A DNA stretch of 64,000 nucleotides from Myxococcales bacterium (GCA_045863395.1 BTVJ01000018.1:32001-96000), one strand, 5' to 3'. Shown: positions 16,899 to 30,603, counted from the stretch's first letter. A program made the numbers and translations. Notes: generated by a model not told the origin, from the sequence alone.

Positions 16899-17795
16899 CT
16901 ACTCCTCGAACAGGACGTCGATGTCCTCGTACAGCTCCTTGGCCTTGCGCTGCTCGATCTCCTGCTCTGCCTGGAGCTCCGGGATCACGTCGGGCTTCGC
17001 GTTGATCACGAACTGGAGCTGCTCCTCGAACATCGCCCGATCCTTGAGCTTCGGGGCCAGCATCTCGGCCATGAGCACGCGGGTGGCGAAGTAGTTGGGC
17101 TCGATCTTCAGCGCCCGCTGGAAGTGCTTCTTCGAGCGCTTCGGATCGCCGTTGGGGAAGGGGATCTTGGTGTAGTAGGCGCCAAAGTAGCGGTCCGGCG
17201 CGCCATAGAAGTACGTGGGGTCGAGCTTGCGGGCGGCGCCGATCATCGCGGCGACCTTGTCCTTGTTCTCGAGCACGTTGATCAGCGAGCTGGCGAGGCC
17301 CCACTTGCCCAGGTTGGTCGCGTACCAGTAGAGAGCCGGCACGCTCTTCTTGTCGACGACCTTGAGTGCCTTGTCGAAGGGCTCGCTGGCACACACCCGC
17401 TTCCTGAACTCGGCGTTCTTGCCACGCAGGGCCACCTCGGCCCAGTAGGTGCCCTTCTCGAAGGCGGCGAGCATGTCGGCCTTCTTCTCCTCGTCGAACC
17501 GCAGGTGCCCGTCCCCGAGGAAGTACCAGGCCCGCGACAGGCGCACCATCAGGTCCGTGTTGGACGGGTCGATCTGGACGGCGCGGTCCCAGGCCTCGAT
17601 GGCCTTCCGCAGCTCCGCCGGGTCGCTGCGCTTCGCCCAGTGGGCCTCGCCCTCCTTCTCCGCCGCGCCGGCGTCCCCTTGGAGCGTCCCCTTCGAGTAG
17701 AGGTCGTCGGCGCAGAGCCCCGACTGGCGCGACGCGCCGCACGCGGTGAGGGTCGCGAGGACGGCGATGGTGGCCGCCGTCATGATGCTACGCAT
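16899..17795 (-). CDS. TPR lipoprotein, TRAP transporter TatT-like component
   Basis: Lipobox LTAC; TPR-like helices; ALYWYA..LG.WG, DPTYFYG, KHFQRAL; first gene of the TRAP operon. Confidence 0.8.
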   Translation of the reverse strand: MRSIMTAATIAVLATLTACGASRQSGLCADDLYSKGTLQGDAGAAEKEGEAHWAKRSDPAELRKAIEAWDRAVQIDPSNTDLMVRLSRAWYFLGDGHLRFDEEKKADMLAAFEKGTYWAEVALRGKNAEFRKRVCASEPFDKALKVVDKKSVPALYWYATNLGKWGLASSLINVLENKDKVAAMIGAARKLDPTYFYGAPDRYFGAYYTKIPFPNGDPKRSKKHFQRALKIEPNYFATRVLMAEMLAPKLKDRAMFEEQLQFVINAKPDVIPELQAEQEIEQRKAKELYEDIDVLFEE

Positions 17796-17865
17796 GGTCT
17801 TCTCCTTCCTCGGGCTGGCGACGAAGCTCGTGCCGTCTGTCTATGCGGGTGTCCGTCGGCGAACC

Positions 17866-17895
17866 GTTATACCCGGCGCCGCTGGAACCGGTCAA
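17866..17895 (-). promoter_or_regulatory. Putative sigma70 promoter of the TPAT operon
   Basis: TTGACC-N18-TATAAC. Confidence 0.6.
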
Positions 17896-17925
17896 CCTGA
17901 AACCGGAATGCGCCCCAGCGCGACC

Positions 17926-18489
17926 CTACCAAGCGAGCCGGGATGCGATGGCCGTGACCGTATACAGGATGGCGAGCCAAATGAAGTACACGGCCCCCAC
18001 GAAGGGCCAGCGCTTCTCCTCGGGGACGCCGTAGAACGTGGGCGCGGCCACGTACACGAGCCATGCACCGTAGCCGACGCCGGCGAACATCAGGTACTCG
18101 CCGAAGGTCAGCCGCAGGATCATGAGCAGCGCGCTCAGCGCAGCGACCGCCGCGATGGGGAAGCTCGCCCAGGCGAAGAGGCGTACCCCGTTGTCCCCAG
18201 CCGCCCGCGCCCCGAAGTACGGCACGAGCAGGTCGACCACCCGGGCCATGGCGAAGACGGCGCCGATGACGGCGCCGATCTGCAGCACTGCGAACACCAG
18301 GAAGTACCCGAGGAGCCCATAGGTGAGGCCCGCGATGACGATGAGCGCCATGGCCACGCTCAACGCGAGGGCCAGCTCGATGATCGCCTGCTGCTTGTCC
18401 TCGGGGGCCGTGTAGAGCCGGTCCCAGGTCACGGGTGTGGGCTTGGTCAAGATCTCGATGGCCCTCGCCAGCACGGCCTGGTAGCTCAC
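17926..18489 (-). CDS. Yip1-like multi-pass membrane protein
   Basis: EILTKPxxxxW start; about 5 hydrophobic segments; YG...VY...PTFYGVPEEK pattern typical of bacterial Yip1 family. Confidence 0.7.
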   Translation of the reverse strand: MSYQAVLARAIEILTKPTPVTWDRLYTAPEDKQQAIIELALALSVAMALIVIAGLTYGLLGYFLVFAVLQIGAVIGAVFAMARVVDLLVPYFGARAAGDNGVRLFAWASFPIAAVAALSALLMILRLTFGEYLMFAGVGYGAWLVYVAAPTFYGVPEEKRWPFVGAVYFIWLAILYTVTAIASRLAW

Positions 18490-18517
18490 GACGCACTCCC
18501 TTGCCGGGTGCCCCCGA

Positions 18518-20005
18518 CTACTTCAGCAAGAAGACCATCTCCGAGTTTCCAATGCGGATCTCGTCGCCGTCCTTCAGGAACTGCTTGGTGATCTTGCGAC
18601 CGTTGACCAGCACCCCGTTGGTCGAGCCGAGGTCCGCGAGCTCGTAGCGCAGATCCTCGATCTTGATGCCCGCGTGGCGCCTCGACACAGACGAGTCGTC
18701 GATGACGATGGAGTTGCCCTCCATGGACCCGATGGTCGTGACGGCCTCGGTCAGGTAGTACTCCATGCCCGCGCAGGGCCCCTTCGTGACCTGCAGCCGG
18801 CCACGGCTCGGCCCCTGCGGACCCGACTCGATGACGACGACCTCGGGCTCGGGGGGGGGCCGCTCCGCGCGGCGGCGCAGGTAACCGGCGATCAGCTTGT
18901 AGATGAGGATCAGCAGGATGAGGCCGCCGAGCCCAATCCCGATCCACATGAGCAGCGTCTTCCACGCGAAGGGCTTCTCAGCCAGGTGCACGTCGCGGTC
19001 GGCCACGGTGGTCAGCTCCGCGCCCGCGACCTTCGCCTTCATCTGGAACTTGACGCGCCGCCCACCGTCCAGGTCCTCCGGCTTGAGGGTGACCACGTAC
19101 TGGCGCTTGATCTGCTCGGCGAGCTCCTCCCACGTCCGCTCGATGTCCGACCGGCTGGACTCGTCCGAGAGCAGCAGCGAGAAGCCGTTGGTCTTGTTGG
19201 AGAGGTCGCGCAGCGCGGGCAGGCCCTTCGTGGCGATGGTCGCATACCCGAGGCTGTAGACACGGATCCCCGACTCGGACGCCGTCTTGGCGATGTCGTC
19301 CACGAGCTTGCTGATCCGCTGCGGGTCCTTCTCCAGCTTGGAGTCGAGCCCGTCGGACATGATGACGATGACCTTCCGCCGCGTGGTGTCCAGGCGCCCG
19401 AACTCGTCCCGGATGCCCGCCCCGAGCTCACGCAGGAGCCGCTCGTAGAGGTTCAGATCCACCGACTTGTTCGGGTCTGGCTCCAGCCCCTCGTCGTCGT
19501 AGGTCTTGAGCTCGATACGCTCGATGTCGTCGCCGGTCTTGGGGCCGCCCTCCTGGAAGGAGAGCTTCCGCTGGAAGTCCTTCTCGTCGTAGACCCACAG
19601 GGCCACGCGGTCGGTGGGGCGCAAGCGCTGCGCGAGCTTCTGCGCGCCGGCGATCCCGACCTTCAGGGGGGGCGCCTGGAGGGTGTCAGCGTTGATGCGG
19701 TAATCGAAGTTCGCGCCGATGATTACCGCGACCGCCACGGACTCGGGCGTCTCGAAGTAGGGCTCGACCTTGATCGACCCCGTGATGGCCTTGTCGTCGA
19801 TCAGGATGGTCAGCGCATCGGGCGCCAGGTCGGGCACCACCCGGCCATCGTCGTCGAGCAGGTCGACGAAGAAGCGGATCTCATTGCGCTCCACGAACCG
19901 CGTCGCGTCGATGTCGTCGATGCGGAAGGACTTTGCAGCCGCGGGCACGGCAAGCGCGACCAGGGTCGCTCCGACGAGCATCAGGAGGGTGCGTGCTCTG
20001 ATCAT
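18518..20005 (-). CDS. Signal peptide - VWA-like domain - single TM - cytoplasmic FHA domain protein
   Basis: Signal peptide ...VPAAA; VIVIMSDG and RVYSLG VWA strands; TM LLMWIGIGLGGLILLILIY; FHA VSRRHA...DLGSTNG. Confidence 0.85.
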   Translation of the reverse strand: MIRARTLLMLVGATLVALAVPAAAKSFRIDDIDATRFVERNEIRFFVDLLDDDGRVVPDLAPDALTILIDDKAITGSIKVEPYFETPESVAVAVIIGANFDYRINADTLQAPPLKVGIAGAQKLAQRLRPTDRVALWVYDEKDFQRKLSFQEGGPKTGDDIERIELKTYDDEGLEPDPNKSVDLNLYERLLRELGAGIRDEFGRLDTTRRKVIVIMSDGLDSKLEKDPQRISKLVDDIAKTASESGIRVYSLGYATIATKGLPALRDLSNKTNGFSLLLSDESSRSDIERTWEELAEQIKRQYVVTLKPEDLDGGRRVKFQMKAKVAGAELTTVADRDVHLAEKPFAWKTLLMWIGIGLGGLILLILIYKLIAGYLRRRAERPPPEPEVVVIESGPQGPSRGRLQVTKGPCAGMEYYLTEAVTTIGSMEGNSIVIDDSSVSRRHAGIKIEDLRYELADLGSTNGVLVNGRKITKQFLKDGDEIRIGNSEMVFLLK

Positions 20006-20036
20006 GGCCTCTCGGGTGGGTGTGGGCGGTGGAGGG

Positions 20037-20759
20037 TCAATACAGCGACTTGAACTTCAGCTCCGTCCTGCCGAGCCGGATCTTGTCGTTGTCGATCAGC
20101 TCCTCCTTGGAGATGCGACGATCATTCAGATAGGTGCCGTTGGTCGAGTCCAGGTCGATGAGCGTGAACCGCCCGTTCTCGTGCCGGATGGCCGCGTGCT
20201 TCGACGACAGGTAGGCGTCGGTCAGCACGATGTCGCAGTCCGCCGCCGTGCCGATGACGTTGCGCCCCGTGACCAGGCGGAAGTCGTGGCCACGGTGCGC
20301 GCCGCCCAGCGCAACGATCCAGCCCACGCAGTCCTGTGCCCGGTCATCCATGATCTCCGAGACGTTGACCATCTGGGTCTTGTCGCTCTCGGAGAACTGC
20401 TCCACCGCCGCCTGCTGTGCGCGCTGCTGCTGCGGGGCCTGCTTCTGGCTACTCTTCTTCTTTCCGAAGAACCCCATGCCCTTCTCACCGCCCTGCTTGG
20501 TGTCCTGAGCAGCCCCGCCCTTCTTCTCCCCCTGAGCCGCCTGTCCCGCCTTCTCGCCGGCCTTCTGTCCGCCGCCCTTCTGGCCCTTGATCTTGGCCTG
20601 CAGCGCCTGCCCCGGCTTGTCCACCGCGGCGTTGAACTTGGAGGCCGCCTTGCTCTTCGCCTGGGCCTGGGCCGAATAGATCTTCCCTTTGACCCTCGCC
20701 TGTGCGCTGGATGTGCGCGACCGGACAAGTCCCTTGAAGAAGTCGATGATCACCTGCAT
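20037..20759 (-). CDS. FHA domain protein with Lys/Gln/Ala-rich N-terminal region
   Basis: C-terminal LSSKHA...LIDLDSTNGT...IRLG; start MQVIIDFF. Confidence 0.85.
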   Translation of the reverse strand: MQVIIDFFKGLVRSRTSSAQARVKGKIYSAQAQAKSKAASKFNAAVDKPGQALQAKIKGQKGGGQKAGEKAGQAAQGEKKGGAAQDTKQGGEKGMGFFGKKKSSQKQAPQQQRAQQAAVEQFSESDKTQMVNVSEIMDDRAQDCVGWIVALGGAHRGHDFRLVTGRNVIGTAADCDIVLTDAYLSSKHAAIRHENGRFTLIDLDSTNGTYLNDRRISKEELIDNDKIRLGRTELKFKSLY

Positions 20760-20866
20760 GTGCGAGCTGCCCAGCGTCGAGGTATCAGCGATCAGGCGAG
20801 TGACGTCAAGATCGTCGCACAGGCCCCCCCCGCGGTCAAGGACACTCGCCCCCGGGGCAAGCCGTG

Positions 20867-22408
20867 CTACGCAGGCTGGTACGCCCACACGTGGAACATG
20901 TTGATGTCACGCGCCGCGCTCCGGTACGTGAAGCGGATCTGGACCTGGTCCTCCTCGATCATGTCACCGGGGATGATGTACGGCCAGTTGCGCCACCGGT
21001 ACTTGCGATCCTTACCCGTCACGGCCCACGGCTCCGCCTTCTTGCCGTTGACCAGCGCGTCGGCCTGCCAGTCGCCGTGCGTGTAGTCGATGCGGAACAC
21101 GAGGATGAGCTGCCGCCCGAGCTTCACGTTCTTGATGGTGAACTGGCAGGTGCCGCCCTCGAAGGCCACGCCCTCGTCCTTGACCGCGGTGCCCTCCTCG
21201 GTGTCCGGGTACTTGAACTGCTGGCGCGAGCGGTATTGGTCGGTGAAGTCCCTGATCTCGAAGGCGTGGGCGCCCTCGCTCTGCGCGTTGAGCACGTCGA
21301 TCTCGTCGCACATGAGGAAGGTGGACCCGTCGAGCTTCAGCTCCTTCTCGAAGGGCGCGCTGCGGATCTTGATCTTGTCCCAGGCGACCTCCGCCTGGGC
21401 CGCCTCCAGCCGGGGGGCCTCCTTGGCGCGCAGCTTGTGCTCGAACAGGCCCTGCAGGGCCTCGCACGCCTTGGTCTGGAACCCGATGATGTGGTTCACC
21501 AGATCCATGCCCGTCTTGTCCTCCTGGTAGATGTTCCGGAGGTAGCGGATCTGGTTGCCGTAGTTGGCGAACTCCCGGGTGGAGGCGTGCTGCGGGTGCT
21601 GCGTCTCCAGCTCGCGGATCATCTCCTCTTCCAGGTCGATGAGCCGCAGGTTCATCCGCGGCAGGTTCCGCAGGTCGATCTGGTTGCACATCAGCAGCAT
21701 CTCGACGGTCAGGTAGGCGTAGAGCACGTCGCCCGCCCGGCGGATGTCCAGGTCGTGGTACAGGTACGAGTAGGTGGTCACGGCGAGCTTCGCGAGCTGC
21801 TGGATCCGGAAGATGGTGTACGGATCGAGGAAGGTCCCCACGACTCCGGCGATGGGCACGAAGCGCAGATCCAGCTCGTTCTCGCGCGGATCGTGCGGGT
21901 TCTTGGCGTCCGAGAGCTTCTTGACGTCCGACGTCAATGCCACGCGGGCAAGCTCGATCTCGCGGTTGAGATCGGGCTCCACGGCCGTCCACTCGATGCG
22001 GGACTTCTCGCTGATCCGCTTGTGGCCCTTGAACTCCGGGTTCTCCTTGTAGGCCACGTAGTCCGTGGGCTCCTCCAGGTAGCGGAGCACCAGGTACACG
22101 GTCTGCGGGAGCTTGAAGTCCGTGGGGTTCAGGACCTTGATCTCCGGCTCCGGGCGCCAGATGTCGCTGCCGGTGCCGTCGATGGCATAGCCGGGCTGGA
22201 TCTCCACCGCCAGCTCGTTGCGCCCACGCGCCGACACGCGCAGCCCGCCCGTCGCGGTCAGCACCACGCCCGGGCCATGGAACATGCGGTTGTGCAGCCG
22301 GTGCTTGTCGACGTGGTAGCGCTCCGCGTCGTTCCAGTCGTGCTCCGTGGTCATGAAGCCACGGAAGAAGTTGATCCTCTTGAACACCGCGCCGCCGTTG
22401 TCGGCCAT
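20867..22408 (-). CDS. CIS/phage-tail baseplate-associated protein (fibre-anchor-type N-terminus) with a C-terminal jelly-roll/carbohydrate-binding-like domain
   Basis: RINFFRG...RYH..KHRLHNR..HGPGVV...GLRV...IQPGYAIDGTG, a motif seen in genes downstream of eCIS baseplate genes; beta-rich C-terminus; AGGAG RBS. Confidence 0.7.
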   Translation of the reverse strand: MADNGGAVFKRINFFRGFMTTEHDWNDAERYHVDKHRLHNRMFHGPGVVLTATGGLRVSARGRNELAVEIQPGYAIDGTGSDIWRPEPEIKVLNPTDFKLPQTVYLVLRYLEEPTDYVAYKENPEFKGHKRISEKSRIEWTAVEPDLNREIELARVALTSDVKKLSDAKNPHDPRENELDLRFVPIAGVVGTFLDPYTIFRIQQLAKLAVTTYSYLYHDLDIRRAGDVLYAYLTVEMLLMCNQIDLRNLPRMNLRLIDLEEEMIRELETQHPQHASTREFANYGNQIRYLRNIYQEDKTGMDLVNHIIGFQTKACEALQGLFEHKLRAKEAPRLEAAQAEVAWDKIKIRSAPFEKELKLDGSTFLMCDEIDVLNAQSEGAHAFEIRDFTDQYRSRQQFKYPDTEEGTAVKDEGVAFEGGTCQFTIKNVKLGRQLILVFRIDYTHGDWQADALVNGKKAEPWAVTGKDRKYRWRNWPYIIPGDMIEEDQVQIRFTYRSAARDINMFHVWAYQPA

Positions 22409-22438
22409 GCGTCTCCTCCTGGAGGGGATACCCCGGGT

Positions 22439-23335
22439 CTATGGCTCCGCGGGCTCCTCGGGCGCCTCGTCCATGACGAGGCCGCTCCCGATGGCCGAAC
22501 CCACGCCGATCTGCATGATGCCCAGGACCCCCGACTCGCGCCGCTTCTCGGCGAAATCGAGCCAGTAGATGGTGTGGGCGGGCTTCTCGTTCTGGATGAT
22601 CTGATGGATCTTCATCAGGGCGTCCTCCGTGATCTCATCCGCCGCGAAGGGCAGCCGCACGATGAAGCAGTGCGACCGGTTCATGGGCGGCAGGATCACC
22701 GCGTCGACCCCCACGACGGAGGACACCCCCACCTGGAAGCCCCTGTGGGGCCAGCGGTTCTCTTCCACCTCAGGGGCGAGGCCCGTGAAGATCTCGAGGA
22801 AGATGCGCAGCGCCCGCGCGGTGCCGCGGATGTTGTAGAGCTCTGCCGCCCGCCGGATCAGCCGCCGCTTGCGGTCCACCGGCCAGTCCGGGTCCAGCGT
22901 CAGCGCCAGCCAGGACGCGAGCCACGGCAGGAAGTCCTCACGGGTCTCCAGGGGCCGGAAGAGCCGATCCATGGAGTCGATGTTCCCCTGCAGCGAGTCG
23001 TGCAGGTGGTGGAAGATCCACAGGTAGCGGCGCAGGAAGTCGCTGTCGACGCCCGTCCCGCTCATCTGGTACACGCTCGGCAGGTGCCGCACCAGGCTCT
23101 GCTTGATCACGTGGAGCTTGACCACGGCGCTGGAGTCCACCATGTGGCCCCGCGGCGGATCCTGGGACACCACCGAGTCCTCCGCTCCGTAGCTCTCGGT
23201 GAAGTGCACCTGTCCCGGCGGAAACCCGGCGCTCCGCAGAACGATCTGCGCGTCGTCCACGTGCAATCCGACCAGGTCGGGCAGGACGCGCTTGCGGCTG
23301 GGGAGCCGCGACGGGGTGGGTGTCTTGGTCGCCAC
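22439..23335 (-). CDS. PASTA domain fused to phage tail protein I (P2 gpI-like) baseplate wedge domain
   Basis: LPDLVGLHVDDAQIVL...VVSQDPPRG (PASTA); HLPSVYQ, FLRRYL, FLPWLASWL, LYNIRGT (gpI-like). Confidence 0.85.
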   Translation of the reverse strand: MATKTPTPSRLPSRKRVLPDLVGLHVDDAQIVLRSAGFPPGQVHFTESYGAEDSVVSQDPPRGHMVDSSAVVKLHVIKQSLVRHLPSVYQMSGTGVDSDFLRRYLWIFHHLHDSLQGNIDSMDRLFRPLETREDFLPWLASWLALTLDPDWPVDRKRRLIRRAAELYNIRGTARALRIFLEIFTGLAPEVEENRWPHRGFQVGVSSVVGVDAVILPPMNRSHCFIVRLPFAADEITEDALMKIHQIIQNEKPAHTIYWLDFAEKRRESGVLGIMQIGVGSAIGSGLVMDEAPEEPAEP

Positions 23336-23338
23336 GGG

Positions 23339-26300
23339 CTACACGATCCTCTCGTGGGCCTTCTCGACGACCTCGACGCCCACGAGGTGAGGGAGCTCAT
23401 CGGGAGCGAGCCGGAGCTGCTCCACCTCGGTGCGCCTCTCGGAGTCGATGATCCGGACCAGATCCACGAAGTCGACGCCGTCGACGTTCTCGATGACGTG
23501 GTAGAGGTCCACCTTGAACACGGCGCGCCCGAAGGGCCAGCCCTTGCCGTCGCGTCCACCGGCCAGCGGGTTCAGGAAGCGCCACAGGTTGGCCTGGATG
23601 TCGCGCTTGATGCGGTCGCTGGACCCGGAGGACCGCCGCACGATGCGCACCTCCACGGACATCTCCACGTAGCGCGGCTTCACCACGTTGACGATGGTGG
23701 TCAGGAGCTTCCGCTCATTGAGGTAGGTGCGCACCCGGCGCAACAGCTCCGTCGACGGGATGGGCTTCTCCAGCAGGTTGGCCGTGCCATCCTGGAGGCG
23801 CGGCAGCTTCGGAACGACGATGACGGTCACCTGCCCCTCCCGGTCGGTGGAGGGGAGCGCCTTCACGCGCGCTACGCTGTTCGACGCCTCCCGGCTCAGC
23901 CACTCGAAGTCCTCCGCCGTCACGGCGCGGTTCCTGGACTTGAGCATGTGGGGACCACGCAGCTTGGCGTCCTCGACCGACTCCAGGTCGCAGCCGCCGC
24001 TCGCTGGGAACGGGTTGGTCACCGCGTCGAGATAGGAGAAGCTCTGCTTCATGACGGTGATCGTGTCGGCGGCAACGTTCCCCTCCACGCCGCCGCCCAC
24101 CTGCCACGCGCTCGCGATGATGTTCTTCTCGCCCTTGGGTGGGACCATGCCGCGGGTGCCGTCGCCGAACCGGATCTCGCTGGTCACCGTGTCCTTGACG
24201 TAGTGCCTGCTGCGGGGGCCGCTGTCGTAGAGGTTGTCCACCTGATGCCACGTGATCAGGTACTCGGTCGTGAACTCAGGATCCTGTCGGAACGCGTCCT
24301 CCCCCTCCTCCGCTACGATGATGTCGATCTCGTCCCGCGAGGGGCGCTCGCGCTCCCGGATGACCACCCGCTGCCCGTCGAGCACCGGCGTCCGCGGGAA
24401 GGTGAACTTCTGGTTGGGCGTCCCCTGACTCGAGCCGAGGAGGCTGTCACGGAACGTCGAGATGTTCAGCGAGTAGCCGCAGTTGAGCAGAATCCGCTCC
24501 ACGCGCGGCGGCACGTCGTAGCCGCCCATCTCCAGCCGCGCCCGCAGCCAGTAGAGGTTCTCGCCGAAGCGCTTGCTGGTGCGCAGGTCCTTGGGGCCCA
24601 CGAACTGCACGAAGCCCGACTGCGTGAAGTTGTTCGTCCAGTCGTGCGGCAAGAGAGGGCTCCACGCCTTGCCCGACCAGTACTCCCAGACGACGCGCTG
24701 CTCGGCCGTCTCCCCCTCCAGCTCCGCGATCGCCCGAGGCTGCCGCCGCTGCCAGGCGCCGGACCGGCCAGGGAGGTTGCCGCCCGACGACTCGTCCACC
24801 GTGTGGAAGTAGATCTGGCACGTCGCGTTCGGGAATGGCTCGTTGAAGCCGAGGAAGATGGTCGGGCTCTCCTCGGCCACCGGCTGGAAGGCCTGGAAGG
24901 CGCGCCCCCCGCTCGCCGCCGTGGCCGTGTGGTCCGTGTACACGAAGTCGTTGAAGGACATGCAGTGCTTGAAGGGGCGGGGCTCCTCCGAGAAGCGGAA
25001 CGCGATGGCCTTGAAGGTCGGGGGCCGCAGCGGCCGCTCGTCGCGCCACACCCACCGATCCTCGACGTTCTCGTAGGCGCCCGGCACGCCGTAGTCGCCC
25101 TGCTCCACGCGCACCCGCAGCCACAGCCCGGTCTCGTCGTTGACCCGTGTCGCCTCCAGGTTCTTGGGGCGCTGGAACGTGAGCACACCGGACTTGGTGA
25201 AGGCGTTGGTCCCGTCCTGGAAGCCATACCAGCCTGGCTCGTCTGCCGGTACCCCGAAGGGAGTCGTCCGCCCGAGGAGGGTCCACTTCTTGCCGTTCCA
25301 GAACTCCCACCGCAGCTTCAGGTCCTGTGAAGCCACCGGGGCCTCGGCGACGCTCGGATCGCTGAGCTGCACCTCGATCTCGATGGTCGCGCCGTCCTGC
25401 GACAGGATGCTCTCGCACGCCACATAGAACATGGCGTCGACTCGCGGCTCTCGGTCGAACGGCAGGAAGTTGCGGTCCATGTCTCGCGGCAGGAACAGGT
25501 CGCCGTCCACGTTGGCGATGGCGCGGTCCGGCGGCACCCCCTCGCCGCTGATCTCGAGGCGGCCGAAGACCGTCTCGATCATGGTCTCCTCGGCGGAGCG
25601 GGGCACCTCGATGAGGCGCCCGCGAATCCAGTACTCCTCCGTATCGTTGACCATGGTCTTGGCCATGGTGGGCGGCCCCATGAACGCGACCATGTTCGGG
25701 TCGACGTCCTTCGGGTGCAGGTAGAGCTCCCGCCACCGCTCGCCGTTCCAGTACTCCCACTCCAGCAGGCGCGTCAGCTCCCGGTCGCTCCGGTGAGGGC
25801 AGTGGAACTGCACCGTGAGCACCGCGGCCTCGTTGAAGTTCTCGAAGCGCGGGTCCCCCAGGTAGATGTAACGATCGATGGCGCGGGTGCCCACGAACGG
25901 GTTGAAGCCGCCGCGCCCGCCGCGAGCCTCTTCGGTGACGTTGGTGATCAGGGTCTTGCCCGACTCCGGGTCGTGCTCCTGGACGACCACGCGCTGCATG
26001 ACCGTGTTGACCACGGTCACGTCCTCCTCGGTCTCGAAGGCGATCGCGCGGCTCCCCGCCCCAGCCTTCGTGGAGAACGCGGACCCTCGCGGGATGGTCA
26101 ACGAGTCGGTCTTGTCGCTGAGCGTGAAGGTCAGCAAGGCCCGCGCCGGCTGGGGCGGCTGGAGCGTCACCCCCATCAGATCCAGGAAGGCGAGGTAGTT
26201 CTTGTCCGGGACCCGGTTGAGCCGGTAGAGCGCCATCTCCATCATCCAGGCGAACAGCTCGATGAGCGTGATGCCCGGATCGCTGGCGTTGAAGTTGGTC

Positions 26301-26389
26301 CACTCCGGGCAGTACTGCGGGATCAGCCGGATCGCCTCGTCGACGATGTCCTCGAACTTCCGGTCGTCCAGGTTCGGCGTCGGGATCAT
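23339..26389 (-). CDS. Putative baseplate assembly protein (baseplate J / T4 gp6-like, long CIS type)
   Basis: PNLDDRKF...PEWTNFNASDPGITLIELFAW; three WE(Y/F)W(N/S)G..W modules; FGDG..GMVP, GGG.EGNV, RAVTAEDFE, FLNPL.GG.DG.GWPFGR. Confidence 0.92.
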   Translation of the reverse strand: MIPTPNLDDRKFEDIVDEAIRLIPQYCPEWTNFNASDPGITLIELFAWMMEMALYRLNRVPDKNYLAFLDLMGVTLQPPQPARALLTFTLSDKTDSLTIPRGSAFSTKAGAGSRAIAFETEEDVTVVNTVMQRVVVQEHDPESGKTLITNVTEEARGGRGGFNPFVGTRAIDRYIYLGDPRFENFNEAAVLTVQFHCPHRSDRELTRLLEWEYWNGERWRELYLHPKDVDPNMVAFMGPPTMAKTMVNDTEEYWIRGRLIEVPRSAEETMIETVFGRLEISGEGVPPDRAIANVDGDLFLPRDMDRNFLPFDREPRVDAMFYVACESILSQDGATIEIEVQLSDPSVAEAPVASQDLKLRWEFWNGKKWTLLGRTTPFGVPADEPGWYGFQDGTNAFTKSGVLTFQRPKNLEATRVNDETGLWLRVRVEQGDYGVPGAYENVEDRWVWRDERPLRPPTFKAIAFRFSEEPRPFKHCMSFNDFVYTDHTATAASGGRAFQAFQPVAEESPTIFLGFNEPFPNATCQIYFHTVDESSGGNLPGRSGAWQRRQPRAIAELEGETAEQRVVWEYWSGKAWSPLLPHDWTNNFTQSGFVQFVGPKDLRTSKRFGENLYWLRARLEMGGYDVPPRVERILLNCGYSLNISTFRDSLLGSSQGTPNQKFTFPRTPVLDGQRVVIRERERPSRDEIDIIVAEEGEDAFRQDPEFTTEYLITWHQVDNLYDSGPRSRHYVKDTVTSEIRFGDGTRGMVPPKGEKNIIASAWQVGGGVEGNVAADTITVMKQSFSYLDAVTNPFPASGGCDLESVEDAKLRGPHMLKSRNRAVTAEDFEWLSREASNSVARVKALPSTDREGQVTVIVVPKLPRLQDGTANLLEKPIPSTELLRRVRTYLNERKLLTTIVNVVKPRYVEMSVEVRIVRRSSGSSDRIKRDIQANLWRFLNPLAGGRDGKGWPFGRAVFKVDLYHVIENVDGVDFVDLVRIIDSERRTEVEQLRLAPDELPHLVGVEVVEKAHERIV

Positions 26390-26793
26390 AGATCTTGCTC
26401 TCTGCGCAGGTAGAACGGGTAGACGAGGTTGCGAATGGCGTTGGTGCGGATCACCCGGTAGGAGACGTCGACCAGCATCACGTTCTCGTTGGCTGAGTCC
26501 GGGTAGGCCGACACCTTCAGATCATCGATGCGCGGCTCCCACTTCACCAGCGCCTCGCGCACGTGGTAGGACACCAGCGAAGCCGTGGACGCGTTGTTGG
26601 GGTGGAACACGTACTCATGGATGCGGCAGCCGAAGTCGGGCCGCATGACGCGCTCCCCCGGCGCCGTGCCGAGGATGAGCAGGATCGCCTGCTCGATGGT
26701 CTCCTCGCCCTCCTTCTGGGCGATGTTCCCCGTCGCGTTGACGGTGAGTGGGTACGCCCATCCGACTCCGAGGAACGACTTCTTCCTGGCCAC
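26386..26793 (-). CDS. GPW/gp25 family baseplate wedge protein
   Basis: FLGVGWAYP...ILGTAPGERVMRPDFGC...WEPRI...NLVYPFYL; GTG start chosen; ATGA overlap with the baseplate-J gene. Confidence 0.92.
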   Translation of the reverse strand: MARKKSFLGVGWAYPLTVNATGNIAQKEGEETIEQAILLILGTAPGERVMRPDFGCRIHEYVFHPNNASTASLVSYHVREALVKWEPRIDDLKVSAYPDSANENVMLVDVSYRVIRTNAIRNLVYPFYLRREQDL

Positions 26794-26864
26794 GTGCTGC
26801 CCCTTTCCAGTCGCCCTGCCCCGCCCCACCAGCAGCCGCGCAACCCCGCGCGGCTACGGTCACC

Positions 26865-27053
26865 TCACGCGAGGCGCCCGTCGAAGTATCGGCCGCAATT
26901 CGGGCACTCCAGCCGGATGTGCACCTCGTCGGCCTCGACCTCCAGCGTCCCCTTCTTGCAGTACGGGCACTTGTGGCCCTCCGTGCGCCCGTTGTAGACC
27001 TCGTCGACGATGTCCTGCAGGAGATCGAGATCTTCGTAGGATAGCTCGCCCAT
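26865..27053 (-). CDS. Small (62 aa) zinc-ribbon protein heading the baseplate operon
   Basis: MGELSYEDL...CPYC...CPNCGRYF; GAGGAG RBS. Confidence 0.75.
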   Translation of the reverse strand: MGELSYEDLDLLQDIVDEVYNGRTEGHKCPYCKKGTLEVEADEVHIRLECPNCGRYFDGRLA

Positions 27054-27167
27054 CCGTCCTCTCCTCATCCACTGCCGGCAGAGACCGGGTTCGCGCAAGG
27101 GCTGCGGATCGCGCCTCACCGCCGGGCCACCACCCGCAAGAGAGACGACGCTCATCGAGGCCAGCCG

Positions 27168-27195
27168 ATAATAGCGATCCCCCCCGGCATGTCAA
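27168..27195 (-). promoter_or_regulatory. Putative sigma70 promoter of the baseplate operon
   Basis: TTGACA-N16-TATTAT, an AT-rich island in GC-rich DNA. Confidence 0.6.
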
Positions 27196-27288
27196 GCGGC
27201 AACGCCAGGAGCAATAGCTTGATTTCTCAAGAGATCCGCGACTGTGGAGGGCGACGACGGCGCCGAGGTCAGCGCAGGAGGAGGAGGA

Positions 27289-29040
27289 TCAGTTGCTGAC
27301 GCTGGGCTTGTAGATGGGCGCCTCGTAGCTGACGTTGACCTTCTGCTTGGGCTCCAGGACCTCGTTGAAGAAGATCGCCTGGCCCGCGCCGCAGTCGTCC
27401 GCCGGACGGATGACGTAGTCCTTGTCCTCGCCCTCCTCCAGCGCCTTGAAGGTGCCGTCCGCGAAGGTCTTGGTGACCGTGATGCCCGTGCCGAGCTTCA
27501 CGGGCTCGTCCACACAGATGCGCACCACACGACGGAGGATGGTGTCGGCGATCTTGTCGAGGGCCTCGCCGAAGCCGGCCGGGCTGCAGATGTTGGTGGC
27601 GACGCCGTTCTTTCCGAAGGCCTTGACGACCTGCAGATACCGCCCGCCCCAGTCGGACTGGCCCACTGCGCTCTCGCAGATGTAGGTGTTCTTGGCCAGC
27701 GGCCCCGGCCCGCCCTTTGACTTGAGGTAGGCGCGGATGCGCTCCTCCTCGCACTCCGCCGCGTCCTGACCTGCCTTGGTCGGGCACTTGAGGGCGCCGG
27801 TGGGGTCGCTGCCGGGAGCGGGCTTGCCGTCACCCGTGCCGACGACGCCGCCGACGATGGCGGCGACCAGGACGCGCGACGGGTCCGAGTTGACGCTGCG
27901 GAGCCCGTTGATGAACGTGCTCACGGGCTCCAGCGGCCCCTTGCCCGACGAGTCCTTCCAGGTCTTGGGCACGTACTCGCTGTCCGCGATGTCCCCCCCG
28001 ATGGGGTCTTTGCCGTCCGTGTCGCCGAGCAGGCCGCACACCTGCCAGGCCTCGGCGACGAGGGTGCCGTTCTTCAGGAACTTCTTGGGCATCTGGGGGG
28101 AGACGCTGCAGTCCTCCTCGTCGGACACGAAGATGATCACCTGGTAGGCGTCTTGCCGCAGGAAGCTCTTGGCCTGGTTGGCGTTGGGGCCGTTGACGTC
28201 CAGCGCAAGGAGCGCCGTGCGGAGGCCCATCTCGAGCTGCGGGTTCTTGTCCTGGAGGGCTCCGACCACCGCCATGCAACGGAACAGGTCTGCGACCGTC
28301 TGCCCCTCGGCGGCGGCGACCTCCGCGTCCACCCACGCCGGGAGCTTCGCCGGGCACCCATCGACGGCGGGCGGGTTGATGCAGCCTCGCAGGCTCATGT
28401 CGCCGCCGGGTGCGATGCACTGGTAGCGGCACGTGTCTCCGCCGCTCACCAGCTCCCCACAGCACTGGGCGCTCGTCGAGGCAGGCGTCGTGTTGTCGGT
28501 GCAGGACTTTCGGCAGTTGGAGTTGAGCGATCCGTTGGTGTTGGTCAGATACTGCGCCCCCTGGCTCGGCGGCTCGCACACCCACCCGGACGGCGTCGGG
28601 ACCTTGCCCTTGAGCGCCTTCTCGCAGTCGCCGTCCGTCAGGCACTTCTCCACGCGCCGCTCCAGACAGTTCGGCGGGAAGGGCTTGGGCAGCTCGTGGT
28701 GGAACTTGCCCATCTCCTTCTCGGACAGGCCGTCGGTGGTCACCACGGCCAGGCGAACGTCCACATTGACGAAGCCGGTGATCTTGCCAATGAACTCGTT
28801 GATGTTCGCCGCGAGCGCGTTCTGCTCCTGGCACATGGACACCGAGTTGTCGATGACCCAGAGGATGTCCAGCTTCACGGCGTCCGTGTTGCTGCGCTCG
28901 TCTGTGACCTGCGCCGAGAAGGAGTCGAGCACTCCCGCCACCGGCACGTCATTGCAGGCGGCGCCGAGGCCGGCTGCCAGGATCAAGGAGGGGGACAGCC
29001 ACGCGAGCCTCTGTGACAAGCGCTTCCGACTGGTGATCAT
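27289..29040 (-). CDS. Cys-rich VWA-domain lipoprotein (CglB-like architecture)
   Basis: Lipobox LGAAC; DILWVIDNSVSM (MIDAS DxSxS), LAVVTTD, IIFVSDEEDCS; many Cys. Confidence 0.8.
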   Translation of the reverse strand: MITSRKRLSQRLAWLSPSLILAAGLGAACNDVPVAGVLDSFSAQVTDERSNTDAVKLDILWVIDNSVSMCQEQNALAANINEFIGKITGFVNVDVRLAVVTTDGLSEKEMGKFHHELPKPFPPNCLERRVEKCLTDGDCEKALKGKVPTPSGWVCEPPSQGAQYLTNTNGSLNSNCRKSCTDNTTPASTSAQCCGELVSGGDTCRYQCIAPGGDMSLRGCINPPAVDGCPAKLPAWVDAEVAAAEGQTVADLFRCMAVVGALQDKNPQLEMGLRTALLALDVNGPNANQAKSFLRQDAYQVIIFVSDEEDCSVSPQMPKKFLKNGTLVAEAWQVCGLLGDTDGKDPIGGDIADSEYVPKTWKDSSGKGPLEPVSTFINGLRSVNSDPSRVLVAAIVGGVVGTGDGKPAPGSDPTGALKCPTKAGQDAAECEEERIRAYLKSKGGPGPLAKNTYICESAVGQSDWGGRYLQVVKAFGKNGVATNICSPAGFGEALDKIADTILRRVVRICVDEPVKLGTGITVTKTFADGTFKALEEGEDKDYVIRPADDCGAGQAIFFNEVLEPKQKVNVSYEAPIYKPSVSN

Positions 29041-29125
29041 GTCAACGTCTCCGTGTGTCGCTGCTCCCGAGCGACGCGACTGCGTTGGTGGCGTGGTGCG
29101 GTTCCGGGCGCCGCCCGATTTGGGA

Positions 29126-29154
29126 AGTATAGAGCCGCCCCCCGGTGGCTACAA
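29126..29154 (-). promoter_or_regulatory. Putative sigma70 promoter for the VWA lipoprotein gene
   Basis: TTGTAG-N17-TATACT. Confidence 0.5.
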
Positions 29155-29191
29155 GTCCGATGCCAGGTCGCACGTAACGGCGGTGAGGCGG

Positions 29192-30406
29192 TCAGCAGGG
29201 GCCCGGGGTGTACTGCATGATGCCGAAGCACTCGGCCGCGCAGGGGTTGGGGTAGGTCAGCCCGTCGACTCCGCAGACCGGGTCCTGCTGGTTCATGTCA
29301 CACTTGCAGACGCACACGTCGTCATAGAGCACGGCGACGCCGACCGCCGCCGAGAAGCACTGGTTCGGGTAGGTCTTGAAATCGGTCCCACACACGGGCG
29401 CCAGGTCCTTCTCGCACTCGGGGCAGGTGGCGTTCGAGAACACCATCGCCCCCTCGCAGGTGGCGAAGCAGTCGTTGCGGTAGCTCTTCACGTTGTTGTC
29501 CATGCCCCAGCCGCACACCGGCGCGCACGACGTGCTGCAGGCGGCGCACGCCGGGTTGCCCGCGAAGTCGCTCGGGCAGTTGCCGGCGCAGGCGAGCGTG
29601 GCCTCCGAGCACTTGGTGTTCTGGACGTGGCAGGAGTTGGGGTAGGTCTTGCCGTCGGTGCCGCAGACCGGCCAGTCCTGCTTCCCGCAGTTGCAGGCCG
29701 ACTTGCAGGGGCCGCAGTTCTTGAACGTCAGCGCCTCGACGCCCTCGTTGGCGCAAGAGAAGTCGCACCAGTCGGTGTACGTCTGGTCCGCCTTGTCGCA
29801 GTACTGGGCGTCTGGACCGCAGTCCAGGTTGGGGGGCGGTGCCTCGCACACACACGCGGCGCAGTCCTGGAGCAGGCACTTTCCGTCGAGCAGGTCCTGG
29901 AGGGAGATGCCCCCGCACTGGGCGAAGCAGTCGTTGGCGTAGTCCACGCCATCACAGCAGAGCGGGAAGTAGCCCTTGTCGATGCACTTGTTCTTCTCTT
30001 CGCAGGGGAGGTCCTCCACGTCGCCGGCGTCTTCCGTGTCCGCGGGCTCCGTGGCGTCTCCGTCGTCCTCGCTCCCCGTGTCCTCGGTGTCCGTCACGGA
30101 GCCGGCGTCGCTGCCGGTGTCGGTGACCTGCACGTCGGGTGTGACCGCCGTGTCGCCCCCTGCGTCGGAGGCGGTGTCGCCGGAGGTGGAGCCGTCGGGG
30201 ATCGCCGAGTCCGGCTGGTCCCCCGTGTCGGCGGTGCTCGTATCGCCCACCCCGCCAGCATCTGCCGTGTCCTCATCATTTGTGACATCGACGTTCCCGG
30301 ACGGGGTGCCGGTCGTGTCATCCGACGGGCAGGCCGAGAGCGCGATGAAGGCGGCGACGCCCGTGAAGAGGCCCAGGCGGTTGAGCAGGGCGCGGGTCGA
30401 TGTCAT
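29192..30406 (-). CDS. Kazal-type repeat lipoprotein (about 6 Kazal-like modules after a Asp/Thr-rich linker)
   Basis: [42 protein letters not shown]; lipobox LSAC. Confidence 0.85.
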
Positions 30407-30603
30407 GCGGGTCCTCATGCAGGTCCTCATCAAGGGCTGGTCCTGGTGTTGCCAGGTCGGGAGCTGTCAGCTTCGGGGAGTCTAGCACCGCCTCCGAGCG
30501 ACGATCAACCTCTGCGTCCCCTGACGGGGTCAGTTGACCGCGTTCACCGGGGCGACCAGAATGCCGTGCCAGTGAAACAGCAGAGATCACGGGAGTGGCG
30601 CCC

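Follow-up and report, generated by a model that had tools for sequence, protein, structure and literature searches.

A wedge operon of a dispersed contractile injection system in Myxococcota and its co-inherited FHA and VWA-TM-FHA genes

The wedge operon

The stretch of DNA analysed here (the window; 64,000 nucleotides, G000:C18:32001-96000) comes from the genome of a Myxococcales bacterium (G000; 97% complete, 186 contigs) and contains an eight-gene run that includes the wedge genes of a contractile injection system (CIS). The gene set of this genome, together with the co-inheritance of the FHA genes of the run, makes it almost certain that the wedge operon is a separately transcribed part of a complete, vertically inherited CIS of Myxococcota. 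Throughout the text, G, L, f and C label genomes, loci, families and contigs, respectively, while C13 designates the 513-aa protein of the operon.

Translation of the window showed that the eight co-oriented genes reported in a preliminary description are all intact open reading frames (ORFs) on the minus strand, between positions 17926 and 27053 (Table 1). They are separated by -4 to 31 nt, except that the spacing widens to 71 nt behind the Zn-ribbon gene and to 107 nt ahead of the FHA gene, and their GC content (65-68%) is the same as that of the genes on either side. A homologue of the Zn-ribbon protein is encoded upstream of gp25 in 37 of the 46 loci with at least 3.5 kb of DNA upstream of the baseplate J gene, and in 71 of 73 related loci the match to gpI starts within the PASTA region at the N-terminus. 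In family f44 (L157-L161, L163) the Zn-ribbon gene is tandemly duplicated before gp25.

The near-consensus promoter TTGACA-N16-TATTAT is the sole promoter-like site found by a consensus scan of positions 17000-28000. About one such site is expected by chance in this interval (shuffle mean 0.8), and therefore the match alone is weak evidence and its conservation is the real evidence: in 44 of the 52 related loci with sufficient upstream sequence, the 250 nt before the Zn-ribbon gene contain a site scoring at least 9/12, compared with 1.8% of shuffles, and such a site is also kept where a hub gene sits immediately upstream. The possible internal promoter TTGACC-N17-GACGAT (20839-20811; score 8/12) is present and is not conserved, a site of at least 9/12 being found upstream of the FHA gene in 4 of 41 related loci (shuffles, 2.7%).

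Among the 47 of 49 window ORFs scanned, none gave a Pfam match to sheath, tube, spike, PAAR, LysM, cap, capsid, terminase or integrase families, and the flanks are made up of ordinary host genes (TRAP transporter, Pst/Pho, Mla and lipoprotein genes), both as originally described for the window. Two lipoprotein-like ORFs lie beside the operon (Table 1), one Cys-rich, with a weak match to a Bdellovibrio metal-ion-dependent adhesion site (MIDAS) adhesin family (E = 6.5e-11) and likewise located upstream of the wedge in G001, and the other with Kazal repeats. RNA data from 4 of the 23 listed public runs were compared with the window; all consist of contigs, the deepest set extends evenly over operon and flanks, and they are informative on neither transcription nor co-transcription. 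One contig piece of 11 kb, taken from a public run, extends over positions 20096-31000 with 20 differing letters and no gap.

Table 1. Location of the wedge operon, of the other modules of the machine and of neighbouring or separate loci in the source genome. Positions without a contig label are counted in the window.
Feature	Location	Strand	Basis or content
Sigma-70-type promoter of the wedge operon, TTGACA-N16-TATTAT	27168..27195	-	Consensus scan and conservation
Zn-ribbon protein, 62 aa, CxxC..CxxC, conserved first operon gene	26865..27053	-	ORF, Pfam scan, homologues in loci
gp25/Afp9/TssE-like sheath initiator	26386..26793	-	PF04965, E 1e-26
Long baseplate J, gp6/Afp11-like, 1016 aa	23339..26389	-	PF04865; TIGR02243, E 3e-115
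PASTA + Tail_P2_I protein, gpI/TssG-like wedge subunit	22439..23335	-	PF03793 + PF09684
C13, TssK-like baseplate connector, 513 aa	20867..22408	-	AlphaFold2 (AF2) model, fold searches
Soluble FHA protein	20037..20759	-	FHA domain match
Signal-VWA-like-transmembrane (TM)-FHA bitopic inner-membrane protein (VWA-TM-FHA); candidate membrane adaptor	18518..20005	-	FHA and weak VWA match, hydropathy
Yip1-like membrane protein; real gene, lineage-specific neighbour	17926..18489	-	PF04893, E 2e-7
Tail module, one direction	G000:C80:6320-19139		Cap, sheaths, tubes, initiator, hub and putative accessory genes
Spike module	G000:C90:17188-21400		gp5 OB spike (PF04717), PAAR (PF05488), DUF2169, 282-aa protein
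282-aa protein of the spike module	G000:C90:20552-21400 (L013:12553-13401)		ORF after DUF2169
FHA-coiled-coil, AAA ATPase and DUF1257 operon (L136)	G000:C97:17692-21794		Homologues in one-piece loci
Cys-rich lipoprotein-like ORF	27289-29040	-	Weak adhesin-family match
Kazal-repeat lipoprotein-like ORF	29192-30433	-	ORF
Separate canonical type VI secretion system (L204, L205)	G000:C11:89782-144426		TssB, C, K, E, F, G, L, M
Separate prophage-like region (L008)	G000:C60:5400-43400		Own sheath gene
Orphan PAAR-domain gene (L014)	G000:C10:26375-26968		PAAR domain

The remaining parts of the machine

The preliminary description called the locus 'baseplate-only', which is true of the window and not of the genome. 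A whole-genome search found the other parts of the machine on C80 and C90, in agreement with the alternative then put forward, of a domesticated CIS split across loci. The genes on C80 encode, in order, a Pvc16_N cap, a sheath, a tube, a putative chaperone, DUF6760, a sheath, a tube, a putative tape measure, a CIS_tube-LysM initiator (PF19266 + PF01476) and a GPD hub (PF05954). The two sheaths (386 and 613 aa) match PF04984/PF17482 and the two tubes are of the gp19 type (PF06841); the assignments of the 123-aa gene without a Pfam match as a possible tail chaperone and of a 1573-aa low-complexity ORF as a possible tape measure are tentative. With the spike module on C90, the genes for the Afp1/5 tube, Afp2/3/4 sheath, Afp7 LysM, Afp8 hub and spike, Afp9 gp25, Afp10 PAAR, Afp11 J and Afp16 cap are all present in G000. 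Both modules are contig-internal and lie between host genes, and no capsid, terminase, portal or integrase gene linked to tail genes was found among the 47 of 49 window ORFs or the 12 ORFs of C80. The 282-aa protein that follows DUF2169 has no named family or fold in the ESM Atlas, and is also encoded beside PAAR in L131, L135 and L146.

Further components may be located on other contigs: the FHA-coiled-coil/AAA/DUF1257 operon on C97, a pentapeptide gene on C81 and a DUF4157 gene on C54 have homologues downstream of the FHA genes in other families with a one-piece locus, where the AAA ATPase (PF00004) is accompanied by DUF1257 and DUF2997. The system of G000 is therefore spread over at least three loci (on C18, C80 and C90), and up to six when the AAA, pentapeptide and DUF4157 genes are counted. 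In all, nine scattered DUF4157 proteins of 220-2684 aa are encoded in the genome (on C16, C68, C50, C19, C30, C24, C37, C1 and C54; L196-L203, L138) and are candidate cargo. Those of C19 and C24 carry peptidoglycan-binding domains, the latter together with an M15 peptidase domain, which suggests bacterial targets.

Several other loci of G000 have related genes. The canonical type VI secretion system (T6SS) on C11 accounts for the VipA/VipB/TssF/TssG matches in this genome, and sits in a class in which TssL was found in only five of 60 relatives. The sheath gene on C60 was rejected as a part of the machine since it belongs to the prophage-like region, the ORFs of which resemble terminase, portal, capsid and baseplate genes as judged by eye. 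A Baseplate_J match on C29 lies in an unrelated membrane-protein region and was set aside, and the orphan PAAR-domain gene on C10 is distant from both injection systems.

Locus organization and descent in relatives

A search of 60 relatives, two from the same order and the other 58 from the same class, detected J in 45 genomes, the first sheath in 46, and the spike and VWA-TM-FHA in 44 each. Full-length matches to J are 48-63% identical, with one at 31%, and the best full-length matches to the first sheath are 83-93% identical, with one at 69%. A sheath match was found in 44 of the 45 J-positive relatives, the exception being a genome that is 80% complete. VWA-TM-FHA was present in 43 of the J-positive relatives (the two misses are genomes 62% and 77% complete) and in one of the 15 that are J-negative; the AAA gene, which occurs in 42 of 45 and 5 of 15, respectively, has a looser tie to the CIS.

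A profile search of genome contigs confirmed 278 of 323 candidates, compared with 0 of 24 for a single-protein query, and the best 80 loci were examined; these and the set of G genomes both derive from GTDB 232 and are not independent. The records carry titles such as Myxococcota, Myxococcales, Deltaproteobacteria, Kofleriaceae, Haliangiales and Polyangia metagenome-assembled genomes (MAGs), and the ESM Atlas cluster of C13 is commonest in Myxococcota. Six records titled Enterobacteriaceae or Klebsiella (L064, L076, L081, L091, L104 and L112) carry the same-order myxobacterial locus, and their titles are probably wrong. A further ESM Atlas cluster, of 505 aa and 58 members, is commonest in Spirochaetota and displays a C13-like head (TM-score 0.84), so that this kind of system may exist beyond Myxococcota. 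Two relatives contain other extracellular CIS (eCIS) loci of canonical order (L054 and L055), which were excluded from the ortholog counts.

In the class, the usual state, as read from gene order, is one locus that runs from the cap through VWA-TM-FHA, with the spike elsewhere. Of the 46 loci in which 3.5 kb or more precedes J, 36 have the hub immediately upstream of the wedge and three contain a spike or PAAR gene. In 57 loci with at least 4 kb downstream of C13, the FHA gene comes next in 42, a long VWA-FHA match was found in 39 (a number of diverged copies are lost to the coverage filter) and Yip1 in none. The Yip1-like gene, which had been joined to the FHA and VWA genes in the preliminary description, was accordingly rejected as a component: a single-protein query, which distant homologues could escape, found it in 0 of 60 relatives as in 0 of 57 loci, 31 loci with ORFs listed beyond VWA-FHA hold other, varying genes in its place, and the closest relative passes directly from VWA-FHA to TRAP genes.

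An extra break just upstream of the Zn-ribbon promoter is common to G000 and G001, which belongs to a sister family and has the same upstream gene as well as TRAP genes downstream; the hub is likewise missing from this position in G003, G009 and family f8. The conserved promoter inside the locus would make such a break harmless. In G045, the sheath (731.5 kb), J (746.5 kb), VWA-FHA (753.6 kb), AAA (4,214 kb) and spike (7,108 kb) genes are all placed on one contig, and dispersal is therefore not an assembly artefact.

In family f50, by contrast with these dispersed arrangements, the entire system forms a single run of about 30 kb (G309). Its first half encodes, in order, Pvc16, sheath, tube, chaperone, DUF6760, sheath, tube, a low-complexity region, CIS_tube, hub and two spikes. 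The second half continues with Zn-ribbon, gp25, J, PASTA-gpI, C13, FHA, a signal-TM-FHA counterpart of VWA-TM-FHA, TM-Zn-FHA, FHA-coiled-coil, AAA, DUF1257, DUF2997, DUF4157, pentapeptide and a small ORF, and a PP2C gene is convergent on the locus. The order is the same in G269 and G273, without a match to the first tube, and the one-piece type was also found in L123, L132, L134, L113 and L115. No Pfam match to a holin or lytic enzyme was obtained among 25 ORFs in or beside the G309 locus, and none to the TssJLM, TssB/C, TssF/G or ClpV families in the loci scanned. The second spike gene of L123, L127 and L130 has a long Gly/Ala/Ser-rich C-terminal extension (more than 1000 aa in all in L127).

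The preliminary description would have read a contiguous eCIS locus in relatives, with FHA and VWA genes unlinked from the wedge, as the sign of a recent deletion remnant or an assembly artefact. A contiguous sheath-tube-hub-wedge locus does exist in relatives, and the FHA and VWA genes are retained in it, which points to an old rearrangement rather than a remnant. Most genomes have one copy of the system. In families f57 and f60 (G221, G262, G283, G287 and G319) C13 is present a second time, as a diverged protein of full length, and the one such copy examined (L175) is distant from CIS genes. In a C13 tree of 53 rows, built by a quick method, the 20 family labels require 19 changes, which is the minimum and was matched by none of 200 shuffles; 17 of 18 out-of-class rows split off with a support of 100, the remaining row being a very long branch. 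Since the tree tracks host families with the minimum of changes, inheritance looks vertical.

Co-inheritance and features of the FHA and VWA-TM-FHA proteins

The association of the FHA proteins with the CIS was evaluated in a phylum-wide set of 301 genomes, each at least 85% complete, with profiles built from CIS-linked copies, 5-9 candidates scored per genome and thresholds of our own setting (E <= 1e-60 for C13, 1e-32 for VWA-TM-FHA and 1e-36 for FHA). Matches to C13, VWA-TM-FHA and FHA were found in 78, 77 and 72 genomes, respectively. Counted over these genomes, which are kin and not independent, VWA-TM-FHA is present in 75 of the 78 C13-positive and 2 of the 223 C13-negative genomes, and the soluble FHA protein in 72 and none, respectively. 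The pair is retained where it has moved away from the wedge, including to another contig (f8; G155, G180 and G266), and it is jointly absent with the CIS from G004 (f4), from G015, G027, G060 and G256 (f8) and from all members of f11 searched. The FHA and VWA-TM-FHA genes belong to the system, and are kept and lost with the machine. The earlier caveat that their linkage to the wedge may be positional only does not hold for this pair, which tracks the CIS even when unlinked.

The soluble FHA protein consists of a basic amphipathic N-terminus, a low-complexity linker and a C-terminal FHA domain. Its Thr128 is invariant (41/41) and is followed at the +3 position by Ile, Val, Leu, Phe or Met. Phosphothreonine-binding FHA domains are marked by the Arg of a G-R motif together with S-x-x-H and N-G. 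In the soluble protein S-x-x-H and S-T-N-G are kept, and the position after the Gly is Thr in 41 of 41 sequences; in the VWA-TM-FHA proteins the usual post-Gly Arg is found in only 5 of 36. The FHA domain of the FHA-coiled-coil protein encoded on C97 keeps the G-R motif, and could therefore read Thr128 of the soluble protein.

VWA-TM-FHA is composed of a signal segment, a periplasmic part with a VWA fold, one TM helix and a cytoplasmic FHA domain, with hydrophobic segments at positions 6 and 350. The FHA domain is more conserved (0.60) than the periplasmic part (0.31). The VWA fold is backed by a Foldseek match to BatB (E = 4e-9). The MIDAS metal site of VWA domains has the motif DxSxS; in the 36 rows aligned here no Asp stands at the expected column of the VWA region, and only the later Asp of S-D-G is invariant. 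No TM segment was detected by hydropathy in the structural CIS proteins, and VWA-TM-FHA is therefore the only membrane protein steadily tied to the wedge.

Structure of C13

C13 has no Pfam match, and its N-terminus shows a weak match to NF053767 CIS13 (E = 2e-10) that falls far below the cut-off. The AF2 model, calculated from 20 sequences, has a mean predicted local distance difference test score (pLDDT) of 82 and a predicted TM-score (pTM) of 0.38. It is divided into a shoulder β-sandwich (residues ~10-192), a four-helix neck (193-328) and a CBM35-like jelly-roll head (340-513), and includes neither a fibre shaft nor a TM helix. The 'fibre anchor' of the preliminary description is, as modelled, a protein with a TssK-like shoulder and neck, a carbohydrate-binding-module (CBM)-like head and no shaft.

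The top Foldseek match of C13 is TssK (E = 6e-7, TM-score 0.22). In the VIA comparison, residues 8-317 match IglD (Z = 10.2, root-mean-square deviation (r.m.s.d.) 12.5, 234 residues aligned) and TssK (Z = 9.5, r.m.s.d. 11.8, 259 aligned). Overall, the TssK/IglD matches (Z = 8.3-10.2, r.m.s.d. 11-13) are confined to shoulder and neck, with no T6SS_VasE Pfam match, and in the best 50 rows of a 48,161-chain fold search only TssK and IglD span both of these domains. Separately, the shoulder resembles a lactococcal phage receptor-binding protein (RBP; Z = 9.1, r.m.s.d. 4.5, 136 aligned), and the neck resembles helical bundles of unrelated proteins (Z up to 11.1), an arrangement that is widespread. 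The head matches CBM35/CBM6 modules (Z = 10.1-10.6, r.m.s.d. ~3; best Z = 10.6, r.m.s.d. 2.7, 121 aligned) and the GH172 β-sandwich (TM-score 0.80), Atlas feature matches for the head all being below 0.9. No eCIS fibre structure appears among those best 50 rows, by which a relation is not excluded.

The mean pairwise identity among 20 C13 sequences is 0.60 for the shoulder, 0.35 for the neck and 0.52 for the head, which contains many invariant basic and aromatic residues, R393, R395, K399, R471, W472 and R473 among them. Judged from these alignments, such conservation of the head appears unlike that of a variable host-range tip. In the T6SS, the shoulder of TssK binds the baseplate and its head binds TssL/TssM (PMC6300606).

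A possible membrane dock and its alternatives

We tentatively propose, with a probability of roughly 0.45, that an FHA module docks the CIS on the inner membrane without the help of TssJLM, and that the machine fires outward. The particle would be assembled in the cytoplasm, where C13 trimers would bind gpI through their shoulder, as TssK binds TssG. The conserved C13 head may then be held at the inner membrane by the soluble FHA protein together with the cytoplasmic FHA domain of the bitopic protein, which would replace TssL/TssM, with the periplasmic VWA region holding or sensing the envelope. Phosphorylation of Thr128 may gate assembly or firing, and the tube would be driven out of the cell and into its contact neighbours, carrying DUF4157- or DUF2169-linked cargo. 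There are precedents: Fha drives the assembly of the T6SS membrane complex and baseplate (bioRxiv 10.1101/2023.12.21.572528), the bitopic CisA is required for firing of the Streptomyces CIS (PMC12237407) and the archaeal T6SS is marked by a conserved membrane gene (PMC11566945). Borrowing of a T6SS membrane complex was rejected, as TssL (PF09850) was not found in 55 of 60 relatives, 45 of which carry J.

A number of points weigh against this proposal. The TssK matches have an r.m.s.d. of ~12 and the C13 model a pTM of 0.38; moreover, the eBAP3 fibres of ordinary eCIS resemble TssK, as Tail_P2_I resembles TssG (PMC12923769), and the fold of C13 is therefore not diagnostic. The CBM35/GH172-like head, as modelled, together with PASTA on gpI, would fit gripping a target surface from outside. 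Both FHA domains are without the usual phosphate-binding Arg, which weakens the phospho-gating step, and the FHA gene is not adjacent to C13 in 15 of 57 loci. The co-occurrence counts rest on kin genomes and on thresholds of our choice. The cap and putative tape measure fit a fixed-length particle, G000 has a separate canonical T6SS, and no gene for a TssJ/TssM-like outer-membrane channel was seen in the one-piece locus; the tube would have to pass the wall and outer membrane without such a channel.

The foremost alternative, doubtful though still to be reckoned with, is a released, tailocin-like eCIS, in which C13 would be a short receptor-binding protein that, with its CBM-like head and PASTA, grips the target, and the FHA and VWA-TM-FHA proteins would form a signalling module for expression, assembly, cargo loading or release rather than an anchor. 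The likeness of the head to CBMs and GH172 and of the shoulder to a phage RBP speaks for it, as do the full eCIS gene set including the cap, the nine DUF4157 proteins, two of them with peptidoglycan-binding domains and one of these with an M15 peptidase, and the reading of Myxococcota MAG eCIS clusters in PMC11937823. Nevertheless, conservation of the head across families comes close to that of the shoulder and the tree tracks host families, in contrast to the variable, often transferred fibres of PMC12923769; C13 has no shaft, the one-piece locus gave no match to a lysis gene, and the co-inherited partner spans the membrane.

It is unlikely that the machine instead corresponds to the cytoplasmic CIS of Streptomyces, with VWA-TM-FHA in the role of CisA, recruiting it to the inner membrane during envelope stress, where it would be fired at the envelope of its own cell for regulated death or development. 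CisA provides the precedent (PMC12237407), the bitopic partner is co-inherited, no outer-membrane channel gene was found in the one-piece locus, and vertical inheritance with 83-93% sheath identity across the class suggests a housekeeping-like role. The spike, PAAR, DUF2169 and nine DUF4157 proteins of up to 2684 aa, on the other hand, point to delivery into other cells, and the very high expression of tube genes in Myxococcota MAGs, possibly of another family (PMC11937823), fits less well.

The tail-less wedge ring, repurposed as an envelope scaffold with FHA, VWA and Yip1, that was suggested for this locus is very improbable. The conserved promoter of the operon and the lack of tail genes in the 64-kb window would agree with it, but sheath, tube, hub, LysM, cap, spike and PAAR genes occur in the same genome, the hub is immediately upstream in most related loci and Yip1 is not conserved; as a lineage-wide state it is ruled out by the co-occurrence of J with sheath and spike. 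A recent deletion remnant, prophage debris or an assembly artefact, for which the 186 contigs and the prophage-like region on C60 might be invoked, is ruled out by the intact ORFs of contig-internal modules, the break shared with G001, the one-contig dispersal in G045 and the gap-free public contig.

The machine has a wider context in the question of how most Myxococcota outside Myxococcus kill prey, most of these lineages being uncultured. Roughly one in four of the genomes sampled from the phylum carries it, and this presence, together with a sheath identity of 83-93% within a class, makes it a strong candidate weapon. As its genes are scattered, cluster-based eCIS surveys would miss or truncate it.

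Comparison with known systems

Earlier publications already describe split loci, TssK-like fibres and the occurrence of eCIS in MAGs of Myxococcota. The architecture is thus not new in being split, 13 split eCIS loci being known (PMC6899500); no published description of an FHA/VWA-TM-FHA module with a Myxococcota CIS was found in a search outside which most subscription papers lie, and in this respect the architecture may be undescribed. In the supplements of PMC6899500, Myxococcus and Sorangium appear in the eCIS tables and Haliangium only in the genome list.

The closest gene content is that of lineage II of the eCIS, or phage-like protein translocation structures (PLTS), in which hub and spike are encoded by separate genes (PMC6899500, PMC4122934). 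Separate tube, sheath, LysM, gp27-like hub and gp5 spike genes are shared, together with gp25, PAAR, J, the Afp16 cap and DUF4157. The present system differs in its dispersed loci, family-tracking tree and co-inherited FHA and VWA-TM-FHA genes; the term 'FHA' is absent from the main texts of PMC6899500, PMC4122934 and PMC8213781. The PLTS-like clusters of uncultured Myxococcota MAGs (PMC11937823), which are highly expressed, share the gp19 tube and sheath genes and possibly belong to the same family, are described as ordinary released eCIS, in a main text without mention of FHA. With the eBAP3/Tail_P2_I type (PMC12923769) the system has in common that the Tail_P2_I gene immediately precedes the gene for a protein whose shoulder is TssK-like. 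Compared by description, C13 lacks a shaft and variable tip and has a four-helix neck and a conserved jelly-roll head, and PASTA, a term absent from the main text of that article, is fused to Tail_P2_I.

Membrane-docked CIS, namely those of Streptomyces with CisA (PMC12237407), the haloarchaeal T6SS (PMC11566945), the thylakoid-anchored CIS (tCIS) of Anabaena (PMC8894136) and the T6SS-iv of Amoebophilus (as presented in PMC6899500), likewise combine eCIS-type structural genes with a conserved membrane element, and the Amoebophilus system is also split. Here the adaptor candidate is a signal-VWA-TM-FHA protein with a soluble FHA protein, in a diderm myxobacterial host. Anabaena Cis13 contains a TM helix, while C13 does not (PMC8894136).

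The canonical T6SS shares the TssK-like connector, an Fha-like accessory protein with a disordered linker, PAAR, the DUF2169 adaptor and a PP2C gene, here beside the one-piece locus. It differs from the present system, which has a single-chain gp18-type sheath, a gp19 tube, a cap, a putative tape measure and a wedge of J and Tail_P2_I, which lacks TssB/C, TssF/G, TssJLM and ClpV in the loci scanned and in which the head fold of C13 is unlike that of TssK. By its gene content, the system belongs to the eCIS/PLTS superfamily and is not a canonical T6SS. It is conceivable, and we advance it as a tentative view, that this is an independently evolved T6SS-like machine for contact-dependent killing: an eCIS-type tail established as a core organelle in several Myxococcota lineages and gated by Thr phosphorylation, in which a TssK-like connector and the FHA/VWA-TM-FHA proteins replace TssJLM as the inner-membrane dock, intermediate between the baseplates of eBAP3-type eCIS and the TssK-TssG-Fha core. 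If the FHA/VWA module is indeed the dock, it would represent a new way of anchoring a CIS in a two-membrane cell, and would bear on the origin of the T6SS from free tails.

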